64,000 nt of DNA from an uncultured virus (IMG/VR IMGVR_UViG_3300044630_006741) (IMGVR_UViG_3300044630_006741), one strand, 5' to 3'; counted from the first letter of the stretch, positions 1,918 to 37,658 are shown. Program-made: numbers and translations. Notes: generated by a model not told the origin, from the letters alone.

Positions 1918-2043
1918 ATGGAAAAGAATAAGTATGACGATTACTCAAAAACTCAAGAAGAACCATCCCTTGGGCTAGAATTATCTATTGTAGCAATAGT
2001 AATAACATTTCTAATTGTATTCTTTAAGATGTCAATATCATGA
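1918..2043 (+). CDS. 41-aa single-pass membrane protein (not in ORF track)
   Basis: MEKNKYDDYS...LSIVAIVITFLIVFFKMSIS*, behind promoter motif. Confidence 0.65.
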   Translation: MEKNKYDDYSKTQEEPSLGLELSIVAIVITFLIVFFKMSIS

Positions 2044-2108
2044 GTAAACCCTCGGGGTTATCCCGGGACTAGGAGTTACATTTGTCTCATAACTTAAAAA
2101 AAAGAGTC

Positions 2109-3321: not shown

Positions 3322-4083
3322 ATGAAAGTAACAAAAGTAAACAATTACGAGAACTGGCTGTTGGAAAGAGAAATCCTTTCTCTTCTTATTAAACACCTGC
3401 ATGAAGGTTGCACTATGCTTCCTATAGCTCATGTCATCAATGAGGGCACTATGAGCAAGGCTGACTATGAGCTTGATAGATTATTAAAGAGAGCTGAGGC
3501 CAAGGGTGAGACACCTCTTGTTAAAGACTTCGTGCCTGAGATCAAGTCTCTGGTTCAGAAGTTTGCAGACTCTGGGCAGTCTGGTGCCTCTGCTCCCTAT
3601 ACATCCGGTGTCATAGTTAGTGTTATCCAGAAGCTTCTTAATCAGGAACCCTTGGGTGGCATAGAGGGCACTGAGGATGAGTGGGTTGATATAGGCAAGG
3701 AAGCAGGAGAGACTCCTGGCACCATGTTTCAGAACAACCGACTGAGCTCTGTGTTCAAGGATGCGGATGATAAACCCTACTATCTAGATGCCATTGTGTT
3801 CAAGGACGCTGATAAGGACTATAGCTTTACTAGTGGCTCTATTGACTTGCCTGGACTAGCTGATGATGCTGGGGGTGGCAAGGTAGGCTCTGCTCAGTAC
3901 ATCAAGACATTTCCTTTTGAACCCAAGACGTTTGTCATTGATGTCATTAGCACTGAGTACCATAAGAACGAAGACGGTACTCTAGTGCCTCAGGATGGAG
4001 GAGGCTGGTGGGAGAGTGTGGTGAAAGATCCCAAGCAGTTAGAGGAAGTGTGGCAGCACTACGATAGAAAGACTATGAAGTAA
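3322..4083 (+). CDS. hypothetical protein
   Basis: 253-aa ORF with a tag-like N-terminus (NYENWLLE). Confidence 0.8.
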   Translation: MKVTKVNNYENWLLEREILSLLIKHLHEGCTMLPIAHVINEGTMSKADYELDRLLKRAEAKGETPLVKDFVPEIKSLVQKFADSGQSGASAPYTSGVIVSVIQKLLNQEPLGGIEGTEDEWVDIGKEAGETPGTMFQNNRLSSVFKDADDKPYYLDAIVFKDADKDYSFTSGSIDLPGLADDAGGGKVGSAQYIKTFPFEPKTFVIDVISTEYHKNEDGTLVPQDGGGWWESVVKDPKQLEEVWQHYDRKTMK

Positions 4084-5006: not shown

Positions 5007-5761
5007 GACACATTAAGAGATATAATCAGCTATTCGAGAACACCCAAGAGCTCACACAGGAGCAGAAAGACTGGCTCGATGAGTGCGTAGATGAGGACGT
5101 AAGGGGCAGAGGAGCTTGGAGCGTTAATCCGAAAACGGGACTAGTTGATATCAAGGGACTTTTTCAGTCCACAGATGAACAGCTAACCGATTTCAAGGGA
5201 GTGAGGTTTGGCAAAGTTAGCGGTGGCTTCTATTGTAATTACAATCAACTCACGTCACTAGAGGGAGCACCACAAGAAGTGGGTGGTGATTTCTACTGTC
5301 ACCATAATAGGCTCACTTCACTAGAGGGTGGTCCACGGAAAGTAGGGGGTTTTTACTATTGCAACAACAATTTGCTCACCTCCCTGGAGGGCGCACCAGA
5401 GGTAGTGCCAAGAATGTTCGTTTGCTCTCATAATAAGCTCACTTCTTTAAAGGGATGCCCTAAGAAGATCGGCTCACAATTTTTGGCCAATAACAACGAG
5501 CTCACCTCACTAGAGGGAGCACCACAGTATGTGGAAGGTCCGTTCTATCTAGGTGATAACCCAATATCTACCAGGGCTTCTGAAGGCGTGCTTAGAAGAA
5601 TGATCAGGGATAGGATCACTTTAGAACAGGCTGTGGCCGATTACTGGAAGAATATACCCAGAGCAGATAAACCATATCTGGCCAAGCACAATCCCGATCT
5701 CTCACCAGAGCAGAAGAGGGGATACGAGGCACTATATAGACTTAAGACAAGAGTTATATGA
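5003..5761 (+). CDS. LRR-like repeat protein, paralogue 2
   Basis: same repeats and caps; ATGA overlap. Confidence 0.85.
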   Translation: MRHIKRYNQLFENTQELTQEQKDWLDECVDEDVRGRGAWSVNPKTGLVDIKGLFQSTDEQLTDFKGVRFGKVSGGFYCNYNQLTSLEGAPQEVGGDFYCHHNRLTSLEGGPRKVGGFYYCNNNLLTSLEGAPEVVPRMFVCSHNKLTSLKGCPKKIGSQFLANNNELTSLEGAPQYVEGPFYLGDNPISTRASEGVLRRMIRDRITLEQAVADYWKNIPRADKPYLAKHNPDLSPEQKRGYEALYRLKTRVI

Positions 5762-8025: not shown

Positions 8026-9021
8026 ATGAAACATATTAGGATATTTGAATCCGCTTCAGAGAAACTATACCACGGTAACAGGAAAGGTGATTTCCCGCCG
8101 TCTAAGAAGAGATTCGCAGATGCTATATTCCTAACATCTAGTTTGGATTTTGCAAAGGATTTTGCAGGATTTAACGATGGCGATGAGTTTCCAGATGGTG
8201 CAGTGTGGGAGGTTGAATTAAAAGAGCTTCTGAATCTCTGCAATCCAATGGAAACCAAAACGATGATTGAGCTGAATCTAAAGGAAGTCATCCAAAAGAT
8301 GATCGACGATAAGTATGTTGATGAAGCAAGCGGGACAAAGTTTAATGAGGTCGGAGGATCTGGCTTTAAAGGATACGACCCAGATGAAGACAGAGAGTTT
8401 GATTTGAAAGATAAATCAGAGAGTGTCTATTTTTATCTATGGAGAATAAAGAACGGGGCTTGGAGAATAATCGAGTGCAACCCGGTTATTGAGAGGATCA
8501 AGGAATCTGGATTTGATGGGTTCTATATAGTGGAGAGAGGAGCTAAAAACGTGGCGATCTTTGACGAGAAGTCTATAAAAAGCTTTGAAAAAATTCTAGA
8601 TCATAAGGAATTAACACCAGACAAAATTAGCGAATCCCGTTTATACGTTGGTAGCAGATCAGGAAGCATGAGACACATTAAGAAATTTGAGTCTTTATTT
8701 CGAGGCAGCACAAACGAGAACGAGTCCTGGACAGGTGATCTATACGATGGCAATATAACATTCGAATTTAGTTATAAGGAACTAGGCTTGGATAAACTCA
8801 CAGAGGAGTTTTATAAGAAGAGCGGCATTCCCAGAGAGTACATCTTGAACGAGCTTATCTATTTTATAGAGATGGATGCGGAGGGGGATGATTTAACGGG
8901 CTATATAGCGGACTATCAAAAAGACAGACTGGGTCTAATAAGGTCCAATTGGGATTCATTGGACAGCGAGGAGCAGAGAGAGTTTACAGTCAAGGATAGA
9001 TTTAGAAGAAGATTAATATAA
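8026..9021 (+). CDS. ADP-ribosyltransferase-like (ART-PolyVal-like) protein fused to a second tagged module
   Basis: LYHG...IFLTS..FAKDFA...GFDG...VAIFD..IK motifs; start at MKHIRIFE behind GATATATA; second MRHIKKFE at 8668. Confidence 0.6.
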   Translation: MKHIRIFESASEKLYHGNRKGDFPPSKKRFADAIFLTSSLDFAKDFAGFNDGDEFPDGAVWEVELKELLNLCNPMETKTMIELNLKEVIQKMIDDKYVDEASGTKFNEVGGSGFKGYDPDEDREFDLKDKSESVYFYLWRIKNGAWRIIECNPVIERIKESGFDGFYIVERGAKNVAIFDEKSIKSFEKILDHKELTPDKISESRLYVGSRSGSMRHIKKFESLFRGSTNENESWTGDLYDGNITFEFSYKELGLDKLTEEFYKKSGIPREYILNELIYFIEMDAEGDDLTGYIADYQKDRLGLIRSNWDSLDSEEQREFTVKDRFRRRLI

Positions 9022-30629: not shown

Positions 30630-31451
30630 ATGAAAAACGTACATTTGTTACCAACAGACAAACCAAGCAGGTTATATAACAATAATGGTCAATTGCATTT
30701 AGATAGTGTTTCAACAACTTCTAATGGACATACGATTAACCAAAACATCTACATCACTAATGATGAGGAGATTAAATTTGATGATTATTATTTAGGTGAA
30801 GATAATAATCTTTATTGTTTAGTATCTAAAGTTAATTCTAATGGTAAAAAAATCATTTTAACAACAGACCAAGAATTAATAGATGAGGGTATTCAACCTA
30901 TAGATGATGAGTTCTTAGAATGGTTTGTTAAGAATCCAAATTGTGAGGAAGTTTTTCTTACTTATGAGTATGTGCAAGTCAATCAAGGCAATCCAATATT
31001 AAGAGGTAGTACTAATGTATCACATAGGTACGAAATCATCATTCCACAAGAAGAACCTAAACAAGAAACACTCTCAACTAAATTGCATATAGGTGAAGTA
31101 GTTGATGAATCATACCCAGAAGCATTTAGAAAACAAGAAACACTTGAAGAACCTAAACAAGAAACACTCTCAACTAAATTGCATATAGGTGAAGTAGTTG
31201 ATGAATCATACCCAGAAGCATTTAGAAAACAAGAAACACTTGAAGAAGCTGCTATTTTAAACTGCCAAAGTATAACTCATCCTTATTGTGATAGAGAAAA
31301 ATTAATGTTTATTAAAGGTGCTAAATGGCAAGAGGAGAGAATGTATAATGAGGAAGAAGTATTAGAAATCATAAGACAATATGCTCTTGAAGAACATTTA
31401 ATAACATCAAGTAAACCTGATATATGGTTTGAACAATTTAAAAAGAAATAG
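30630..31451 (+). CDS. hypothetical phage protein with internal 96-bp tandem duplication
   Basis: MKNVHLLPTDKPSRL...KQETLEE; 31050-31145 equals 31146-31241. Confidence 0.8.
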   Translation: MKNVHLLPTDKPSRLYNNNGQLHLDSVSTTSNGHTINQNIYITNDEEIKFDDYYLGEDNNLYCLVSKVNSNGKKIILTTDQELIDEGIQPIDDEFLEWFVKNPNCEEVFLTYEYVQVNQGNPILRGSTNVSHRYEIIIPQEEPKQETLSTKLHIGEVVDESYPEAFRKQETLEEPKQETLSTKLHIGEVVDESYPEAFRKQETLEEAAILNCQSITHPYCDREKLMFIKGAKWQEERMYNEEEVLEIIRQYALEEHLITSSKPDIWFEQFKKK

Positions 31452-31454
31452 GTT

Positions 31455-31832
31455 ATGATACAGGACAAAGAAAATCAAACACCACCAATAGCTGCAGCTA
31501 TCGTAGTAATGGCAATATTAATTGGAATCTCATTTGCTATTTTTAAAGCGGGGGAACGTGGAGCCTCCGATAAACAACATTATGAGCAACCCGCTATCTC
31601 AGACTCGGTAAAACCAGCTCCAGAACAACCCCATGAATCAAAGGAGGATAGTTTAATAAAACAGCTATATCCTATTTGTGTGGTTGAAGTAAATAAATCT
31701 ACTCATAAAGAGTATAAGTGGGAAGTGGTAGCAGAGAATGGTTTGATGTATTATACCAATAAGAAACCAAAAATTGGTGATCCTGCTTTTTATATCGGCA
31801 GTGACAGCGAAACGTTATATTGGACTAAATAA
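31455..31832 (+). CDS. membrane-anchored hypothetical protein
   Basis: N-terminal TM segment. Confidence 0.7.
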   Translation: MIQDKENQTPPIAAAIVVMAILIGISFAIFKAGERGASDKQHYEQPAISDSVKPAPEQPHESKEDSLIKQLYPICVVEVNKSTHKEYKWEVVAENGLMYYTNKKPKIGDPAFYIGSDSETLYWTK

Positions 31833-31853
31833 GTTACGGATAAAGAAGAAAAA

Positions 31854-31979
31854 ATGGATCGAATAGAAATACACTGGATGACACTTATAGTAAGTACAGT
31901 CTTATTAGCGCTACTGTTAGCCCGTCTTATAAAGGAACACATACAGGAAAAGCGCTGGGAAAATAGAAATCGTAAATAG
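31854..31979 (+). CDS. 41-aa membrane peptide
   Basis: MDRIEIHWMTLIVSTVLLALLLARLIKE... Confidence 0.5.
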   Translation: MDRIEIHWMTLIVSTVLLALLLARLIKEHIQEKRWENRNRK

Positions 31980-32007
31980 AAAGTTACGGTACAAAGATAA
32001 AACAACT

Positions 32008-32193
32008 ATGGAGAAGTTAATAACGAAATTAAAGACCTTGCAAGACAGGCAAAAGGAATTAATGTCTATGATGGCAGAAGAAAAGTATGACAATTTTATT
32101 TCCGTTTTAAGGGCTAAAGGATATGCTGATAGCATTATAGAATTAGAGGCAAAAATAGAAGTTTTAATGGATGCTATATCCATATTAAGATAG
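32008..32193 (+). CDS. small coiled-coil protein
   Basis: ORF track. Confidence 0.6.
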   Translation: MEKLITKLKTLQDRQKELMSMMAEEKYDNFISVLRAKGYADSIIELEAKIEVLMDAISILR

Positions 32194-32211
32194 CAGTAAA
32201 ACAATATACAT

Positions 32212-32303
32212 CGGTGTTACTGCGGGAATCACACATATATTTGCAAAATAAATTAAAAAAGGATCTGAAAAAGACCGAAACAAAAAAGAGAATCTGATAT
32301 ATA
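32212..32303 (+). promoter_or_regulatory. tandem promoters of tRNA operon 1 (early-type and GAAAC...GATATATA type)
   Basis: CGG-N8-CGG-N10-TATATTTG at 32212-32243; GAAACAAAAAAGAGAATCTGATATATA at 32277-32303, similar to 35795-35820. Confidence 0.7.
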
Positions 32304-32314
32304 AAAACCAAACA

Positions 32315-32464
32315 ATGAGAAACACTCAGAAAAATATGGCAATTATTAACCCGGCGAATCCGAAAGGATTTATCGCAGAGGCAGTGAAGCAGCAAGGCTT
32401 TTTTGCGTGGGAGAAAGGGATATGCCCAGGTCTGGAGTTTCGATTTAGTTTACAGGAAAGATAA
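32315..32464 (+). CDS. 49-aa attenuator leader peptide of tRNA operon 1 (not in ORF track)
   Basis: MRNTQKNMAIINPANPKGFIAEAVKQQGFFAWEKGICPGLEFRFSLQER*; residues 5-36 use only the 12 amino acids of the downstream tRNAs. Confidence 0.8.
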   Translation: MRNTQKNMAIINPANPKGFIAEAVKQQGFFAWEKGICPGLEFRFSLQER

Positions 32465-32521
32465 GATTTAAACTAAATATCACATTGAAACTCCAGATCG
32501 AAAGTCTGGAGTTTTTTTTTT
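32429..32521 (+). terminator. antiterminator/terminator pair (attenuator 1)
   Basis: terminator AAACTCCAGA..TCTGGAGTTTTTTTTTT 32488-32521; competing helices 32429-32441/32487-32499 and 32443-32452/32469-32478. Confidence 0.85.
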
Positions 32522-32525
32522 ACAT

Positions 32526-32599
32526 GGGGTTATAGCTTAAATCGGTGAGAGCGACGGTCTGAAAAACCGTAGATCCGGACTCGAGGCCCGGTATCCCCA
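32526..32599 (+). tRNA. tRNA-Phe(GAA)
   Basis: ACGGT-CTGAAAA-ACCGT anticodon arm; atypical T-loop. Confidence 0.85.
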
Positions 32600-32640
32600 C
32601 AAAAGAATCTGATCAACGGATTAGATGCAGAAGATTAAAT

Positions 32641-32714
32641 ACATCATTGGTGAAATTGGCTAATCATCTTGGACTCCAAATCCAAGGTTCTGGGTTCGAA
32701 TCCTAGATGGTGTG
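32641..32714 (+). tRNA. tRNA-Trp(CCA)
   Basis: TTGGA-CTCCAAA-TCCAA; GGTTCGAATCC. Confidence 0.9.
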
Positions 32715-32747
32715 CAGAAATAAGTTCTTTGACATATTGGAAACCAT

Positions 32748-32820
32748 AATTCCTTAGCTCAGTTGGTAGAGCGCCTCCCTTACATGGAGGAGGCCGCAGG
32801 TTCGAGCCCTGCAGGGATTA
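32748..32820 (+). tRNA. tRNA-Val(TAC)
   Basis: CCTCC-CTTACAT-GGAGG. Confidence 0.9.
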
Positions 32821-32829
32821 CTTAATTAT

Positions 32830-32902
32830 GCTCGGTTCGTCTAGAGGCCTAGGACATCCCCCTTTCACGGGGAAAACATGGATTCGAATTCCATACCGAG
32901 TA
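32830..32902 (+). tRNA. tRNA-Glu(TTC)
   Basis: TCCCC-CTTTCAC-GGGGA. Confidence 0.9.
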
Positions 32903-32975
32903 CAAACATATTAAACAAGAAATTGCCTCGCTAAACTAACCAGGTTTAGCAAGACAAAAACAGGTTTAGCATAAT

Positions 32976-33063
32976 GACCTCGTGGCGCAATTGGTAGCGC
33001 AACTGACTTTTAATCAGTAGGGAAGCTGTATAGCCGTTGTGGGTTCGAGCCCCACCGGGGTCA
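32976..33063 (+). tRNA. tRNA-Lys(TTT) with unusually long variable region
   Basis: ACTGA-CTTTTAA-TCAGT then about 20 nt of variable region. Confidence 0.85.
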
Positions 33064-33065
33064 CT

Positions 33066-33181
33066 TTAGCGATGGTGGTAACGCGCTTTGAGGAGAAAGT
33101 AGCTTTGGACCTGCAAGTCCAGTCAAGCGAAGAGTATCCAATTAGGAGGATAATTCCACTCGTCACTTGCAGGTGACGTAA
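33066..33181 (+). ncRNA. putative structured RNA inside tRNA operon 1
   Basis: non-coding GC-richer spacer with hairpins GGAC-CTGCAA-GTCC and CGTCACTT-GC-AGGTGACG. Confidence 0.4.
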
Positions 33182-33183
33182 AT

Positions 33184-33257
33184 GGGGTAGTAGCTCAGCT
33201 GGTTAGAGCACATGACTGTTAATCATGTGGTCATAGGTTCGAATCCTATCTACCCCG
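33184..33257 (+). tRNA. tRNA-Asn(GTT)
   Basis: CATGA-CTGTTAA-TCATG. Confidence 0.9.
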
Positions 33258-33264
33258 CTAAAAA

Positions 33265-33337
33265 GCGGAAGTAGCTCAATTGGTAGAGCGCGGCCTTGCC
33301 AAGGCCGAGGTTGCCGGATCATTCCCGGTCTTCCGCT
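33265..33337 (+). tRNA. tRNA-Gly(GCC)
   Basis: CGGCC-TTGCCAA-GGCCG; atypical T-loop ATCATTC. Confidence 0.9.
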
Positions 33338-33345
33338 CAAAAAAT

Positions 33346-33418
33346 GCGATAGTAGCTCAATTGGTAGAGCACCGTCCTTCCAAGTCGGGGGTCGCAGGTT
33401 CGAGCCCTGTCTATCGCT
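33346..33418 (+). tRNA. tRNA-Gly(TCC)
   Basis: CCGTC-CTTCCAA-GTCGG. Confidence 0.9.
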
Positions 33419-33429
33419 CACCCAAAGAT

Positions 33430-33501
33430 AGCGAGGTAGCTCAGAGGCAGAGCAACCGACTCATATTCGGTAGGTCAGGATCTCGGAATTCCTCCTCGCT
33501 A
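33430..33501 (+). tRNA. tRNA-Met(CAT)
   Basis: ACCGA-CTCATAT-TCGGT; atypical T-arm; Ile2 identity not excluded. Confidence 0.8.
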
Positions 33502-33507
33502 CTATAT

Positions 33508-33578
33508 TGTCCCTTCGTCTAAGGGCAGGACAGCTGATTTTGATTCAGCTAATGGTGGTTCGAATCCATCAGGGACAA
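33508..33578 (+). tRNA. tRNA-Gln(TTG)
   Basis: GCTGA-TTTTGAT-TCAGC. Confidence 0.9.
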
Positions 33579-33589
33579 CAATTTAAAAT

Positions 33590-33664
33590 ACTCAGGTAGC
33601 TCAATTGGTTAGAGCACCTCGCTGATACCGAGGAGGCCTGAAGGTTCGAGTCCTTCTCTGAGTA
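33590..33664 (+). tRNA. tRNA-Ile(GAT)
   Basis: CCTCG-CTGATAC-CGAGG. Confidence 0.9.
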
Positions 33665-33671
33665 CTTAATT

Positions 33672-33746
33672 CGGGATGTAGATCAGTTGGATTAGATCGC
33701 CTGGTTTGGGACCAGGAGGCCGCAGGTTCGAGTCCTGCTATCCCGA
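33672..33746 (+). tRNA. tRNA-Pro(TGG)
   Basis: CCTGG-TTTGGGA-CCAGG. Confidence 0.9.
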
Positions 33747-33753
33747 CTAAAAT

Positions 33754-33826
33754 GGGCCGGTAGCTTAAGAGGCTAAAGCGCTGCACTTGCAATGCAGAAT
33801 ATTGGGTTCGAGTCCCACCGTGTCCA
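33754..33826 (+). tRNA. tRNA-Ala(TGC)
   Basis: CTGCA-CTTGCAA-TGCAG; G3:U70 pair. Confidence 0.85.
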
Positions 33827-33834
33827 CTAAATTT

Positions 33835-33907
33835 GCTCTCATAGCTCAATGGTCAGAGTCGGACGCTTATATCGTCAAGGTTGCAGGTTCGAGTCCTGTT
33901 GGGAGTA
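33835..33907 (+). tRNA. tRNA-Ile(TAT)
   Basis: GACG-CTTATAT-CGTC; canonical T-arm. Confidence 0.8.
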
Positions 33908-34034
33908 CAAGTTTCCAATATAAAATTAAAAGTTCATCTGGTTTTCTGCGGAATCCTGTTCTATATTTGTAAAGTAATTAAAAACTTAGGCATGAAGGAA
34001 GGAAAGGAGTTTAAACTAAAAAAGGGTAACTAGA

Positions 34035-34133
34035 ATGGATCAAATCGGACACGTCGTTCTCTTTACAATAATAGGATTGCTAATAGCAATGTTAGTATAT
34101 CTAGCGGCATGGCAACCTAAAAAATGGAAATAA
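34035..34133 (+). CDS. 32-aa membrane peptide
   Basis: MDQIGHVVLFTIIGLLIAMLVYLAAWQPKKWK*, downstream of CGG-N10-TATATTTG at 33949. Confidence 0.5.
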   Translation: MDQIGHVVLFTIIGLLIAMLVYLAAWQPKKWK

Positions 34134-34355
34134 TGGGATACTGGCTCTGGGCAGATTGAAAACACACAGGTTAAAATCCTGTACTGATTACAAAAATAAA
34201 ACCTCAACAAATAAAGTTGTGAGTTGTATTGAAATAGCCAATTATAAGCCAACATAAAGCTGTTGGGTGCAGATGGAGTAATTAACCAGGAGCGCAGGCA
34301 CTGATTGTGACGGTACAACAAATACCCCTCTGAGTTTGGGTTTTATTTTAAATAT

Positions 34356-34453
34356 AGTTAGGTGGCGGAATGGTAGACGCACAAGACGGGCGATGCATTT
34401 AAAACAGAAATAAGCCTGGTCGGTTTTTACAGGTTCGAATCCTGTCCTGACTG
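34356..34453 (+). ncRNA. tRNA-scaffold RNA, copy B
   Basis: AGTTAGGTGGCGGAATGGTAGACGC-[insert]-TACAGGTTCGAATCCTGTCCTGACTG. Confidence 0.75.
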
Positions 34454-34466
34454 CTAAAAGAAAGTT

Positions 34467-34709
34467 ATGAATAAAATAGAGAATTACAATTTTGACAAAA
34501 ATGATTGGGCACATTTCCATGATGTTATTTTAGATGTGACTTGGAATGATGGTAAAGTGAATCTAAATCAAAAAGAAATGGAACAATTATTTTGGGAGTT
34601 ACCAGAAGATATGAGAATTGATGCTCAAAAATATGGTATGAATGATACACCTTGGAGAGATAGTCTGCGGGTATGGTATGAACGAAATAAAATGGGTAAG
34701 ACTGTTTAA
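34467..34709 (+). CDS. hypothetical protein
   Basis: 80-aa ORF between scaffold RNAs. Confidence 0.7.
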   Translation: MNKIENYNFDKNDWAHFHDVILDVTWNDGKVNLNQKEMEQLFWELPEDMRIDAQKYGMNDTPWRDSLRVWYERNKMGKTV

Positions 34710-34724
34710 TTGGTTATAAAACAT

Positions 34725-34843
34725 AGTCAGGTGGCGGAATTGGTAGACGCTGCTGTGGGGCGACACCACTCTTTTAAAAACAGCATAAGCTCTTGCAATG
34801 ATGTACACATTGCAAGGTACAGGTTCAAGTCCTGTCCTGACTA
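34725..34843 (+). ncRNA. tRNA-scaffold RNA, copy C
   Basis: AGTCAGGTGGCGGAATTGGTAGACGC-[insert with TGCTG/CAGCA and CTTGCAATG/CATTGCAAG stems]-TACAGGTTCAAGTCCTGTCCTGACTA. Confidence 0.75.
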
Positions 34844-34924
34844 CTCTGGGCTCAGTAAAGCCTCTTATCGTAAGATAACGTAACTGAAGTGGATAACCTA
34901 GAAATAGGTGACGCTCCACTATGG

Positions 34925-35004
34925 AGTCAGGTGGCGCAATTGGAAAACGCAACTCGCGGTGTACACAGAGGAGTGAATTACAGGTTCGAGTCCTGTCCTG
35001 ACTA
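34925..35004 (+). ncRNA. tRNA-scaffold RNA, copy D
   Basis: AGTCAGGTGGCGCAATTGGAAAACGC-[short insert]-TACAGGTTCGAGTCCTGTCCTGACTA. Confidence 0.7.
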
Positions 35005-35219
35005 CACGTTCCGACTAATCATCGGATAGTATGCCTCATACGATGAGAAGTGGTGTGATAGCCACAGAGGAGAGTTGAAGGTTCGTATATACAAACCTTC
35101 CAGTTGACTACTGACGTCGGTAAAACCCTTCACGAGGGGAGCAAGACAGTCTATTCCTAACTCAGCAATGAGGACAGCCATATCACCTGTAAGTTGGATA
35201 AATTAGGGTGTTTTTATAT

Positions 35220-35382
35220 AGTCAGGTGGCGGAATTGGTAGACGCTATCGTACTCAAGTAAGGCAAAGCAATGTAGATGAAACGTCGTCGCATGGTGAGT
35301 TAACACCTAAAAGTCTTTGGACTTGAAATCCAAAAAACCTTGAGTATGTTCTACGATACAGGTTCGAATCCTGTCCTGACTA
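35220..35382 (+). ncRNA. tRNA-scaffold RNA, copy E
   Basis: same ends; about 110-nt insert closed by TACTCAAG/CTTGAGTA. Confidence 0.75.
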
Positions 35383-35407
35383 CAAAAATTAAAATCTAAG
35401 GTAATAA

Positions 35408-35689
35408 ATGAAATGCTACGAATGTAAACACAGAGGAAATGTAATAGGCTCAGCTCATAGCAGCTGTGGTGTTATCAGAAGCACAGGTAGTGAGAAGGGA
35501 CAGGAGTTAGAATTCATGCTGGCGATGGGGCAGGTCGAAATGAAAGATCAAGATGGTAACCCTATTGTTGATATAGACCCTCATGGTATTCAAAACGGAT
35601 GGGCTGCTTGGCCTATAGATTTCGATCCAGTTTGGATAAGATCCTGTAAATTCTATACAGAAAAAGAGAAAACAGGTGAATTGAAATAA
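35408..35689 (+). CDS. small Cys-containing hypothetical protein
   Basis: CYECKHR...AHSSC...GWAAWPIDFDPVWIRSC. Confidence 0.75.
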   Translation: MKCYECKHRGNVIGSAHSSCGVIRSTGSEKGQELEFMLAMGQVEMKDQDGNPIVDIDPHGIQNGWAAWPIDFDPVWIRSCKFYTEKEKTGELK

Positions 35690-35698
35690 ATAACATAT

Positions 35699-35772
35699 GC
35701 TACCGTGGTGTAACTGAATAACACGTCTAACTACGGATTAGAAGAGCGAGGGTTTGAATCCTTCCGGTAGTA
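35699..35772 (+). tRNA. tRNA-Arg(ACG)
   Basis: TCTAA-CTACGGA-TTAGA. Confidence 0.85.
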
Positions 35773-35830
35773 CAAAAAATAATCGAAATTAGAAGAAACA
35801 AAAAGATGTTCTGATATATAATAACATAAT

Positions 35831-35923
35831 ATGAAAAACTTGATCCATACATCCTTACATTTATCCACCACGAGTACCACTTGTGATTCGGATTTATTGT
35901 GGAGGAGGCTAATGGATCAATAA
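35831..35923 (+). CDS. 30-aa attenuator leader peptide of tRNA operon 2 (not in ORF track)
   Basis: MKNLIHTSLHLSTTSTTCDSDLLWRRLMDQ*; residues 6-23 use only H,T,S,L,C,D, the amino acids of the downstream tRNAs. Confidence 0.8.
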   Translation: MKNLIHTSLHLSTTSTTCDSDLLWRRLMDQ

Positions 35924-35975
35924 TAATATTGAATTTTGATTCTGAAAAAGCCTCCCCTAAAAAGGAGGCTTTTTT
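35904..35975 (+). terminator. antiterminator/terminator pair (attenuator 2)
   Basis: terminator AAAAAGCCTCC-CCTAAAAA-GGAGGCTTTTTT 35945-35975; competing GGAGGCT at 35904-35910 inside the leader ORF. Confidence 0.8.
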
Positions 35976-36005
35976 ATTGGCTCTTTGATTTATTAGATTT
36001 AACAC

Positions 36006-36089
36006 GGAAGAGGAATCACAGCGGCCTGTGAGCTAGTCTTGAAAACTATGCGTACCTCCGGGTATTGGGATCGACACCTACCTCTTCCG
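36006..36089 (+). tRNA. tRNA-Ser(TGA)
   Basis: TAGT-CTTGAAA-ACTA, long variable arm, G73. Confidence 0.8.
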
Positions 36090-36097
36090 CTTTTTCC

Positions 36098-36173
36098 GGG
36101 GCCTGTGGTGTAATGGCTTGCATAACACACTGTCACTGTGTAGGTCGGGGTTCGAATCCCCCAGGTCCCGCCA
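36098..36173 (+). tRNA. tRNA-Asp(GTC)
   Basis: ACACA-CTGTCAC-TGTGT; encoded CCA. Confidence 0.9.
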
Positions 36174-36175
36174 AT

Positions 36176-36263
36176 GGAAGATGATCCTAAACGGAGATAG
36201 GATCCGCCTGCTAAGCGAGATGTTCGGGTAAAACCGGATGAGGTTCGATCCCTCCGTCTTCCG
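36176..36263 (+). tRNA. tRNA-Ser(GCT)
   Basis: CGC-CTGCTAA-GCG, long variable arm. Confidence 0.8.
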
Positions 36264-36268
36264 CAAAC

Positions 36269-36341
36269 TCCAGAGTAGCTCAATTGGTAGAGCCCTTGTT
36301 TTGTAAACAAGTGGTTGTCGGTTCGATTCCGTCCTCTGGAT
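36269..36341 (+). tRNA. tRNA-Thr(TGT)
   Basis: CTTGT-TTTGTAA-ACAAG. Confidence 0.9.
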
Positions 36342-36346
36342 CTAAT

Positions 36347-36419
36347 GACACCGTGTCTGAATGGTTTAGGTCCAGGTCTGCAAAACCTTGGTACGTGGGT
36401 TCGAATCCCTCCGGTGTCT
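36347..36419 (+). tRNA. tRNA-Cys(GCA)
   Basis: AGGT-CTGCAAA-ACCT; U73. Confidence 0.9.
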
Positions 36420-36425
36420 CTATAT

Positions 36426-36500
36426 GGTGTCTATAGTGTCAGCGGTATAGCACGACGGGTTGTGGTTCCGTTAGCACCAGTTCGAATCTGGTTAGACACA
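36426..36500 (+). tRNA. tRNA-His(GTG)
   Basis: ACGGG-TTGTGGT-TCCGT; G-1 present. Confidence 0.85.
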
Positions 36501-36507
36501 CTAATAA

Positions 36508-36592
36508 GCCCCGGTGGCGAAACAGGCTATACGCACCAGACTTAAGATCTGGCGATCAGTGAATCGTGTGGGTTCGAATCCCACCCGGGGTA
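36508..36592 (+). tRNA. tRNA-Leu(TAA)
   Basis: CCAGA-CTTAAGA-TCTGG, variable arm. Confidence 0.9.
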
Positions 36593-36624
36593 CATAATTT
36601 TTTGTACTTTGATATATAGGTATT

Positions 36625-37224
36625 ATGATTGAAGGATACAAAAAATACCAAAACGGATTTGTCAAAGACCCAGCTTCTTACTTGTTAAAAGAAGAAGAAA
36701 ACGTTACTGCCAGCACAAGCCTGGTAACACCGAAAACTCTTAATGATTTTTCGGAATCAATATCATCCTCCCTGAATGAGAGAATCGGTGACGAGTATGC
36801 TGCTCACTATTTCTATAGAAATGCTGCCAATTGGTGTAAAAATGTCAATTATAAAAATGCCACAGCATATTTTGAAGCTGAGGCTGCCAGCGAATTAGAT
36901 CACGCTAAGGGATTACAAGACTACCTGACACAGTGGAACCTAATGCCTGCTATTCCTGCTGCTCCAACGCAGCATTCTTTTGAAAATCTAGCAGATATTA
37001 TCAATAAGGCTTACGAGATAGAGTATGAGTTAATGCTTAAATACTCCGACAATCAAAAAGAGTTCTTAAATGATCACCCAGCAACTTTCAATTTTATTCA
37101 GAAATATGTTGATATACAGAATGAAGCTGTTGCTGAATACTCGGATCTTTTAAATGCTCTTAATCTAGTGGACATCAACAATAGATTGGATGTCCTTTAC
37201 TTCGAGAACAATTACTTCGGATAG
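36625..37224 (+). CDS. ferritin-like protein with N-terminal extension
   Basis: LNERIGDEYAAHYFY...EAASELDHA...AYEIE...QNEAVAE ferroxidase pattern. Confidence 0.85.
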   Translation: MIEGYKKYQNGFVKDPASYLLKEEENVTASTSLVTPKTLNDFSESISSSLNERIGDEYAAHYFYRNAANWCKNVNYKNATAYFEAEAASELDHAKGLQDYLTQWNLMPAIPAAPTQHSFENLADIINKAYEIEYELMLKYSDNQKEFLNDHPATFNFIQKYVDIQNEAVAEYSDLLNALNLVDINNRLDVLYFENNYFG

Positions 37225-37238
37225 TAATTAGTTACCCG

Positions 37239-37658
37239 TTACAATTCTTTAGAAAAGGTTAGACCCGCATATCCTCTCGAGAAATCGAAAGAGAAGTTCG
37301 TGTTTGGTATGTAAACTGATGCTCCTAAATATTTACTATTTCCAGTTTCATCCTGCCAATCGTCTACGTATATCTCAATTCCCTTGTTTGCCAATAAGTC
37401 TGAAGCTTTGGATATGAAATCTGGATCATCTGGCTTAAACTTTATGATCTGCGATTTTATTGACGAGTCCATTGATATCTTAGGTACGTTCAGCAGAGAT
37501 TTTTTAAAATCAGAATTCATCTTTAGATAGTCGACTTTACCAAATTTTGGAGCCTCTATCTTAAAATTAGTTAGAGACATTTTTGGATCTGGTTTAACTG
37601 TGGTAGACTGCCCACCCTCATTTATAAAATCTTCGAAAAGTTTTATGTTTTTCATCAC
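37239..37658 (-). CDS. tagged hypothetical protein
   Basis: MKNIKLFEDFINE; GATATATA upstream. Confidence 0.8.
   Translation of the reverse strand: MMKNIKLFEDFINEGGQSTTVKPDPKMSLTNFKIEAPKFGKVDYLKMNSDFKKSLLNVPKISMDSSIKSQIIKFKPDDPDFISKASDLLANKGIEIYVDDWQDETGNSKYLGASVYIPNTNFSFDFSRGYAGLTFSKEL

Follow-up and report, generated by a model that had tools for sequence, protein, structure and literature searches.

Enterobacteria govern a number of amino-acid operons, among them ilvGMEDA, ilvBN, thr, trp, his, leu and pheA, through leader-peptide attenuators, and the pheST leader attenuator of Escherichia coli controls phenylalanyl-tRNA synthetase. Why phages should have transfer RNA (tRNA) genes is a question argued over for decades; the proposals include codon compensation, replacement upon host shut-off and evasion of tRNA-cleaving defences. 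Here we describe, from a 64,000-nucleotide stretch of an uncultured virus (IMG/VR IMGVR_UViG_3300044630_006741; the whole stretch is called the window below), two phage tRNA arrays, each preceded by a short open reading frame (ORF), whose codons match the amino acids of the tRNAs that follow, and by an intrinsic terminator with whose 5' arm the end of that ORF can pair. This attenuator anatomy recurs in related phages, where both the composition of the leader peptide and the antiterminator pairing co-vary with the unit to which they belong, and it makes it likely that each array is gated by a multiplexed, ribosome-mediated (leader-peptide) transcription attenuator of the trp/ilv type; the phage probably makes a block of tRNAs only when that block's codons are read slowly.

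Both arrays of the window follow the same order, from short ORF through intrinsic terminator to first tRNA, and each such assembly is referred to as a unit. Their parts are:

32315-32464, + strand: leader ORF 1, 49 codons, stop codon TAA at 32462-32464; peptide MRNTQKNMAIINPANPKGFIAEAVKQQGFFAWEKGICPGLEFRFSLQER
32327-32422, + strand: sensor stretch of leader 1, codons 5-36, all 32 of which specify amino acids of array 1
32429-32452, + strand: antiterminator 5' strand of leader 1, within the last 12 codons; pairs with 32469-32499 in the minimum-free-energy fold
32469-32499, + strand: antiterminator 3' strand of unit 1, the 3' part of which is the terminator 5' arm
32487-32525, + strand: intrinsic terminator 1, 12-bp stem and 5-base loop (32487-32515) with ten T, ending directly before tRNA-Phe; dG -15.2
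32526-33908, + strand: tRNA array 1, Phe Trp Val Glu Lys Asn Gly Gly (CAT) Gln Ile Pro Ala Ile(TAT); called by ARAGORN, the CAT gene by Rfam only
35831-35923, + strand: leader ORF 2, 30 codons, stop codon TAA at 35921-35923; peptide MKNLIHTSLHLSTTSTTCDSDLLWRRLMDQ
35840-35899, + strand: sensor stretch of leader 2, codons 4-23, 19 of which (of 20) specify amino acids of array 2; unbroken run of 18
35904-35910, + strand: antiterminator strand of leader 2, in the ORF tail; its partner is 35949-35955 of the terminator 5' arm
35943-35976, + strand: intrinsic terminator 2, 13-bp stem in the minimum-free-energy fold; 8-bp core and T run in the terminator scan
36006-36593, + strand: tRNA array 2, Ser(TGA) Asp Ser(GCT) Thr Cys His Leu(TAA); called by ARAGORN

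ARAGORN places 20 tRNA genes within 32526-36593, all on the + strand. A further tRNA with a CAT anticodon, at 33430-33501, is seen by Rfam and not by ARAGORN; the remaining tRNAs are confirmed by Rfam. Array 1 thus amounts to 14 genes for 12 amino acids (F, W, V, E, K, N, G, M, Q, I, P and A) and array 2 to seven genes for six (S, D, T, C, H and L), the Ser(TGA) gene at 36006-36090 being an ARAGORN call at the relaxed threshold -ps85 only.

The two leader peptides are strongly biased towards the amino acids of their own arrays. After Met1, 40 of the 48 residues of leader 1 belong to the array-1 set, five to the array-2 set and three to neither, and 21 of the 29 residues of leader 2 belong to the array-2 set, six to the array-1 set and two to neither. 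All 12 amino acids of array 1 are present in leader 1 and all six of array 2 in leader 2; when each array is instead taken to extend up to the next unit, so that the first set also includes the tRNA-Arg(ACG) at 35699, coverage is 13/13 and 6/6. A sequence-only reading that preceded this work had held that the leaders divide the amino acids as the arrays do: the enrichment (40/48 and 21/29) and the full coverage stand, and the exclusive use does not. Among the 765 ORFs of at least 20 amino acids in the six frames of the window, the longest run of set-1 residues is that of leader 1 (32; next best 19) and the longest run of set-2 residues that of leader 2 (18; next best 10). The per-site probability of such a run is ~6e-7 for set 1 (calculated for 29 residues, the observed run being 32; background frequency 0.61) and ~6e-10 for the set-2 run of leader 2 (background frequency 0.31). 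The match extends to the codons of leader 2, where all five Leu codons are TTA or TTG, fitting tRNA-Leu(TAA).

Each ORF also ends in sequence that competes for its terminator. The earlier proposal that the 3' part of the ORF and the terminator 5' arm can form a competing hairpin, its loop holding the stop codon, is borne out by folding: in the leader 1 antiterminator the stop codon at 32462-32464 is located in the hairpin loop, and in leader 2 the ORF tail at 35904-35910 pairs with 35949-35955. When the terminator 3' arm was withheld, the 5' arm paired upstream over 12 of 12 bases in leader 1 and over seven of eight in leader 2. Terminator 1 is followed by a T run at 32512-32521, and terminator free energies across all of the units described below lie between -11.6 and -19.0 kcal/mol.

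From this geometry we infer translation of the leader, ribosome stalling and regulated read-through, along the following lines. Transcription would start 5' of the short ORF, whose codons list the amino acids of the downstream tRNAs, one to five times each. A fast ribosome would reach the stop codon and cover the ORF tail—masking of the antiterminator by a ribosome at this position being suggested by the spacing—whereupon the terminator hairpin, 20-33 nucleotides (nt) further on, would form and polymerase would halt before the first tRNA. Were a matching charged tRNA scarce, the ribosome would be slowed within the sensor stretch, leaving the ORF tail free to pair with the terminator 5' arm; the antiterminator so formed would block the terminator, and the array would be transcribed. 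As phage tRNAs build up, leader translation would quicken and the array would be turned off again. With the array's own amino acids spelled out in the sensor, the circuit would constitute direct negative feedback on decoding capacity.

Relatives of the window were reached through the 273-residue protein encoded at 30630-31451, a protein that contains an exact tandem duplication of ~32 residues. Its relatives in viral contigs number 353, and 80 of their loci were retained; 37 records were searched for tRNAs, and array regions were taken from 15. Other routes yielded less: among GenBank phages a blastn search with 32000-37000 found no close relative, its hits being confined to tRNA genes and no record covering 80% of the query; the relatives of a 199-residue gene downstream of array 2 showed no tRNA around 14 loci; a 93-residue gene had one relative locus, without tRNA; and neither the leader 1 peptide nor the promoter-like pattern upstream had a match in the viral_contigs collection. 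Five distant relatives (G001-G005) with 0-6 scattered tRNA matches each, some of them odd (G003 had none), were left out of the analysis. A strict scan for hairpins followed by T runs, at most 150 nt upstream of a tRNA, gave 24 rows. Three were dropped: L119 3877 (no free ORF, the candidates overlapping called tRNAs), L123 2869 (within a tRNA-like T arm) and L124 5690 (a 5-bp stem 3' of a signal-peptide-like ORF). Three near-duplicate rows were removed (L121, of L118, and the two units of L128, of L127), and four units were added from a fold-based scan, from which six weak hairpins were excluded after inspection for want of a convincing leader ORF. This left 22 units at 14 loci, the window and 13 viral-contig stretches; 20 leader-terminator units ahead of tRNA arrays were thus found in related viral contigs beyond the two of the window. 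The order of the tRNAs in these arrays, and the way in which amino acids are split between blocks, vary from one relative to the next.

That variation allowed the test proposed in the sequence-only reading, for co-variation of leader composition with the downstream anticodon set, to be made, and its outcome was positive. With every tRNA up to the next unit blindly assigned to the unit before it, the best-scoring array for each leader was its own in 15 of 15 rows, from seven genomes with two or three units. The three leaders of L129 illustrate the pattern: their own sets account for 11/25, 18/25 and 10/21 residues, against two to eight of 21-25 for the other sets. The z scores of the 11 informative, non-redundant units sum to 30.18, which 0 of 200,000 permutations reached (permutation mean 1.88, standard deviation (s.d.) 5.4); with default ARAGORN calls the sum was 25.7 against 0.91 (s.d. 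5.16), again reached by 0 of 200,000, and with the window's own units excluded the observed value was reached by seven of 200,000. Leaders cover the amino acids of their arrays completely or all but one in 19 of 22 units; among the three with lower coverage (including L116-1, 16/18, and L125-1, 17/20) one is informative and none is among the 11 permuted. The signal depends on reading frame: in-set residues make up 260/355 (0.73) in the ORF frame, against 176/326 and 175/324 (0.54 and 0.54) in the other two.

The leaders also pointed to tRNA genes that default settings miss. A relaxed ARAGORN threshold, applied uniformly across loci and yielding 11 minus-strand calls overall as a gauge of false positives, gained leader-listed amino acids absent by default: Ser, Ser, Met and Ala in L126, Gln, Phe and Lys in L125, and Thr and His in L129. 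Support at the level of codons is present but modest. In L127, leader 1 uses AGA twice and its array carries tRNA-Arg(TCT), and leader 2 uses CGT and CGG and its array carries tRNA-Arg(ACG); for leucine, TTR and CTN codons stand at 13:2 in units with Leu(TAA) only and at 7:9 in those with Leu(TAG) only (Fisher p 0.023).

The antiterminator co-varies in the same way. Duplexes between the ORF tail (last 16 codons) and the 5' arm of its own terminator average -12.6 kcal/mol, against -7.2 (s.d. 2.6) for mismatched combinations; the own arm ranked first or second for 14 of 16 tails (first of 16 for leader 2 of the window), and the matched sum was reached by none of 100,000 permutations. In all 22 units the terminator stem lies 20-33 nt beyond the stop codon, within a search range of -8 to 110 nt, and an ATG-started ORF of at least 21 amino acids is present in all 16 non-redundant units, against 4.14 expected from shuffles.

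These results bear on three other explanations. The leader might be translated and codon-matched yet act after transcription, with ribosome occupancy controlling the processing or decay of the precursor or setting a fixed level of partial termination. Anatomy alone cannot separate regulated from constitutive termination, and the antiterminator is the more stable fold in leader 1, as such a role would allow; the co-variation of tail and arm and the fixed spacing from stop codon to terminator, however, are needed by a kinetic ribosome-polymerase switch and not by a role in processing, and we regard this explanation as unlikely. Direct sensing by RNA, in which in-frame leader triplets would pair with the anticodons of charged or uncharged tRNAs in the manner of a T-box specifier and thereby decide which of terminator and antiterminator is favoured, would make use of the same complementarity to the anticodons downstream and of the same pair of alternative hairpins. 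It gives no place, however, to an ATG-started open frame in 22 of 22 units with its stop 20-33 nt before the terminator, or to a compositional signal confined to one frame; an Rfam scan of 31500-37500 contains no T-box match at E <=1, a dozen specifiers side by side are to our knowledge without precedent, and direct sensing is accordingly very improbable. That the small ORFs are unrelated to the arrays or mere remnants, and the terminators merely the ends of upstream genes, is scarcely credible: short ORFs are common in AT-rich DNA and shuffles yield one at about a quarter of sites, but they stand in 16 of 16 units where 4.14 would be expected, the composition and pairing matches were reached by 0/200,000 and 0/100,000 permutations, and the window's leaders are the extremes among 765 ORFs.

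Several observations nonetheless count against ribosome-mediated attenuation or narrow its support. Out-of-set residues make up 8/48 of leader 1 and 8/29 of leader 2, and each amino acid is represented by one to five scattered codons, against the runs of the his or pheA leaders, so that the response to loss of a single tRNA is uncertain. Neither leader has a Shine-Dalgarno sequence upstream of its ATG; other genes of this phage likewise lack one. No protector hairpin of the trp type (region 1:2) is evident in folds of leader 1, and the full-length minimum-free-energy fold of that leader retains the antiterminator, the more stable form, whereas other units fold to the terminator; leader 1, if untranslated, may therefore default to read-through. 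Among the relatives, arrays that serve nearly all 20 amino acids (L116, L123, L124, L125, L130 and L132) are uninformative (z ~0), and two of 16 units, L126-1 and L127-1, lack preferential pairing of tail and arm (ranks 10 and 7). Unit boundaries were partly curated by hand, in that three strict-scan hairpins were dropped and six weak ones excluded, and, since the compared phages are related and several leaders have a common N-terminal motif, the units are not fully independent. Two metatranscriptome runs, available as contigs only, cover neither leader and are uninformative on expression.

What the attenuators respond to in infection can be proposed more tentatively. The leaders may possibly, though we hold it doubtful, be multiplexed counter-defence sensors, widespread in freshwater phages: if a single host tRNA out of those a block serves were lost, to an anticodon nuclease, another tRNA-directed defence or host shut-off, the ribosome would stall in the leader of that block and derepress precisely the block that holds the replacement, feedback would turn it off on recovery of decoding, and each leader would serve as a 'table of contents' of its block. 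To name host anticodon nucleases such as PrrC or PARIS as the trigger is attractive but speculative; the sequence fits plain supply-and-demand feedback equally well.

The N-termini of the leaders resemble one another. Leader 1 of the window, L125-1, L126-1 and others begin M-K/R-N/T-T-N/Q-K-H/N-M, and most units begin M-K-N/Q/T; the sensor parts differ. The shared N-terminus may be inherited from a common ancestor or may be needed for initiation. Upstream of both leaders of the window lies a common motif, read in the sequence, that is a candidate promoter:

32277-32304, + strand: upstream motif, copy 1
35795-35821, + strand: upstream motif, copy 2

Its 12-base core, TCTGATATATAA, has exact matches in the window only at 32293 and 35810. 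A sigma-70 promoter scan made no call at either copy; of the order promoter, ORF, terminator and tRNA first proposed for both arrays, the last three elements are confirmed, and for the promoter there is this shared motif only. TATATTTG elements, which resemble the Bacteroidota -7 promoter motif, occur at 33962-33969 (3' of array 1) and at 32236-32243 (~70 nt before leader 1), and TTG...TAnnTTTG-like elements, which resemble the Bacteroidota promoter consensus, lie upstream of many units in the relatives. Together these elements hint at a Bacteroidota host. Phage DNA of the window occurs in lake-water metagenomes.

The region between the arrays holds small ORFs, four odd tRNA-like genes and the tRNA-Arg(ACG) at 35699. 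The tRNA-like genes (34356-34453, 34725-34843, 34925-35004 and 35222-35382) have near-identical acceptor, D and T arms around middle parts that are unrelated and enlarged, for overall lengths of ~80-160 nt; three score 37-43 bits against the Rfam tRNA family and the fourth 25 bits, and similar over-long matches are found in the relatives. They could be introns, decoys or a modular tRNA family. At the relaxed threshold ARAGORN calls a four-base anticodon, in an 8-base anticodon loop, at 34925-35005 of the window, and there are such calls in related contigs as well (L117rc 5031-5123 and 2505-2600, L044 and L111). An 80-residue ORF at 34467-34709, within the tRNA region, has 82-93% nucleotide matches in four viral contigs, whose flanks are unrelated and lack tRNAs, and is possibly a small mobile gene. 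Within array 1, the tRNA-Lys(TTT) gene (32976-33064) is 89 nt long, with additional bases 3' of the anticodon arm, and a structured 119-nt spacer separates it from tRNA-Asn.

Arrays of the relatives have peculiarities of their own. In L118 (reverse complement, 2363-2902) the array is broken between Asn and Tyr by a 179-residue ORF with an HNH-like Cys/His motif; its homologue in L122 is uninterrupted, and the ORF looks like a homing-endonuclease insertion. In L119 (reverse complement, 3877-3901) a strong terminator-like hairpin without a leader ORF lies inside the array, 12 nt before tRNA-His. Rfam further places a freshwater-1 RNA (85 bits) at 1986-2047 (- strand) of L126 and a transfer-messenger RNA (tmRNA; 68.6 bits) at 8110-8604 (- strand) of L124, both in the tRNA region.

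Phage tRNA clusters are described in two reports as able to replace host tRNAs as a counter-defence (PMC10264068, PMC11555353). The words 'leader' and 'attenuat' are absent from both texts, and PMC11555353 ascribes the effect to a strong constitutive phage promoter rather than to demand-sensing control. A full-text literature search, with subscription journals and supplementary files outside its range, returned no published account of tRNA genes controlled by leader-peptide attenuation. That a conserved control element should read the codons of its own array suggests that phage tRNAs are made on demand, in response to slow decoding. Attenuation of the classical type, which answers to the supply of amino acids and senses one to three of them, would thereby come to cover the supply of tRNAs, with a dozen or more amino acids sensed. 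A reporter placed behind leader and terminator offers a direct experimental handle, and the leaders are already an aid to annotation.

Set beside described systems, the proposed phage tRNA attenuators are a known kind of control in a new form. Like the attenuators of the ilv, thr, trp and his type they have a short leader in which regulatory codons abound, an intrinsic terminator ahead of the first gene, and an antiterminator that excludes the terminator and takes its 5' strand from the end of the ORF; the logic by which hungry codons lead to read-through would also be shared. They differ in that tRNAs and not biosynthetic enzymes would be controlled, in that up to 12-17 amino acids would be sensed at once where those attenuators sense one to three, and in having codons that are scattered rather than in runs, with no clear region 1:2 hairpin and no match to an Rfam leader family: none of the Trp, His, Leu, Thr and Phe families reaches its gathering score in the window's tRNA region, the sole match being Phe_leader at 35915-35978 (27.7 bits, E 0.17; gathering score 55). 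As in pheST, a component of the decoding machinery would be governed by the reading speed of its own codon; pheST responds to one amino acid and yields a protein, whereas the product of a phage unit is the tRNA itself, and the feedback would for that reason be direct. With T-box riboswitches the phage units would have in common the sensing of tRNA status through a terminator/antiterminator switch, but a T-box binds a single tRNA directly and without a ribosome, whereas the phage units carry a conserved ORF, and those of the window match no T-box.

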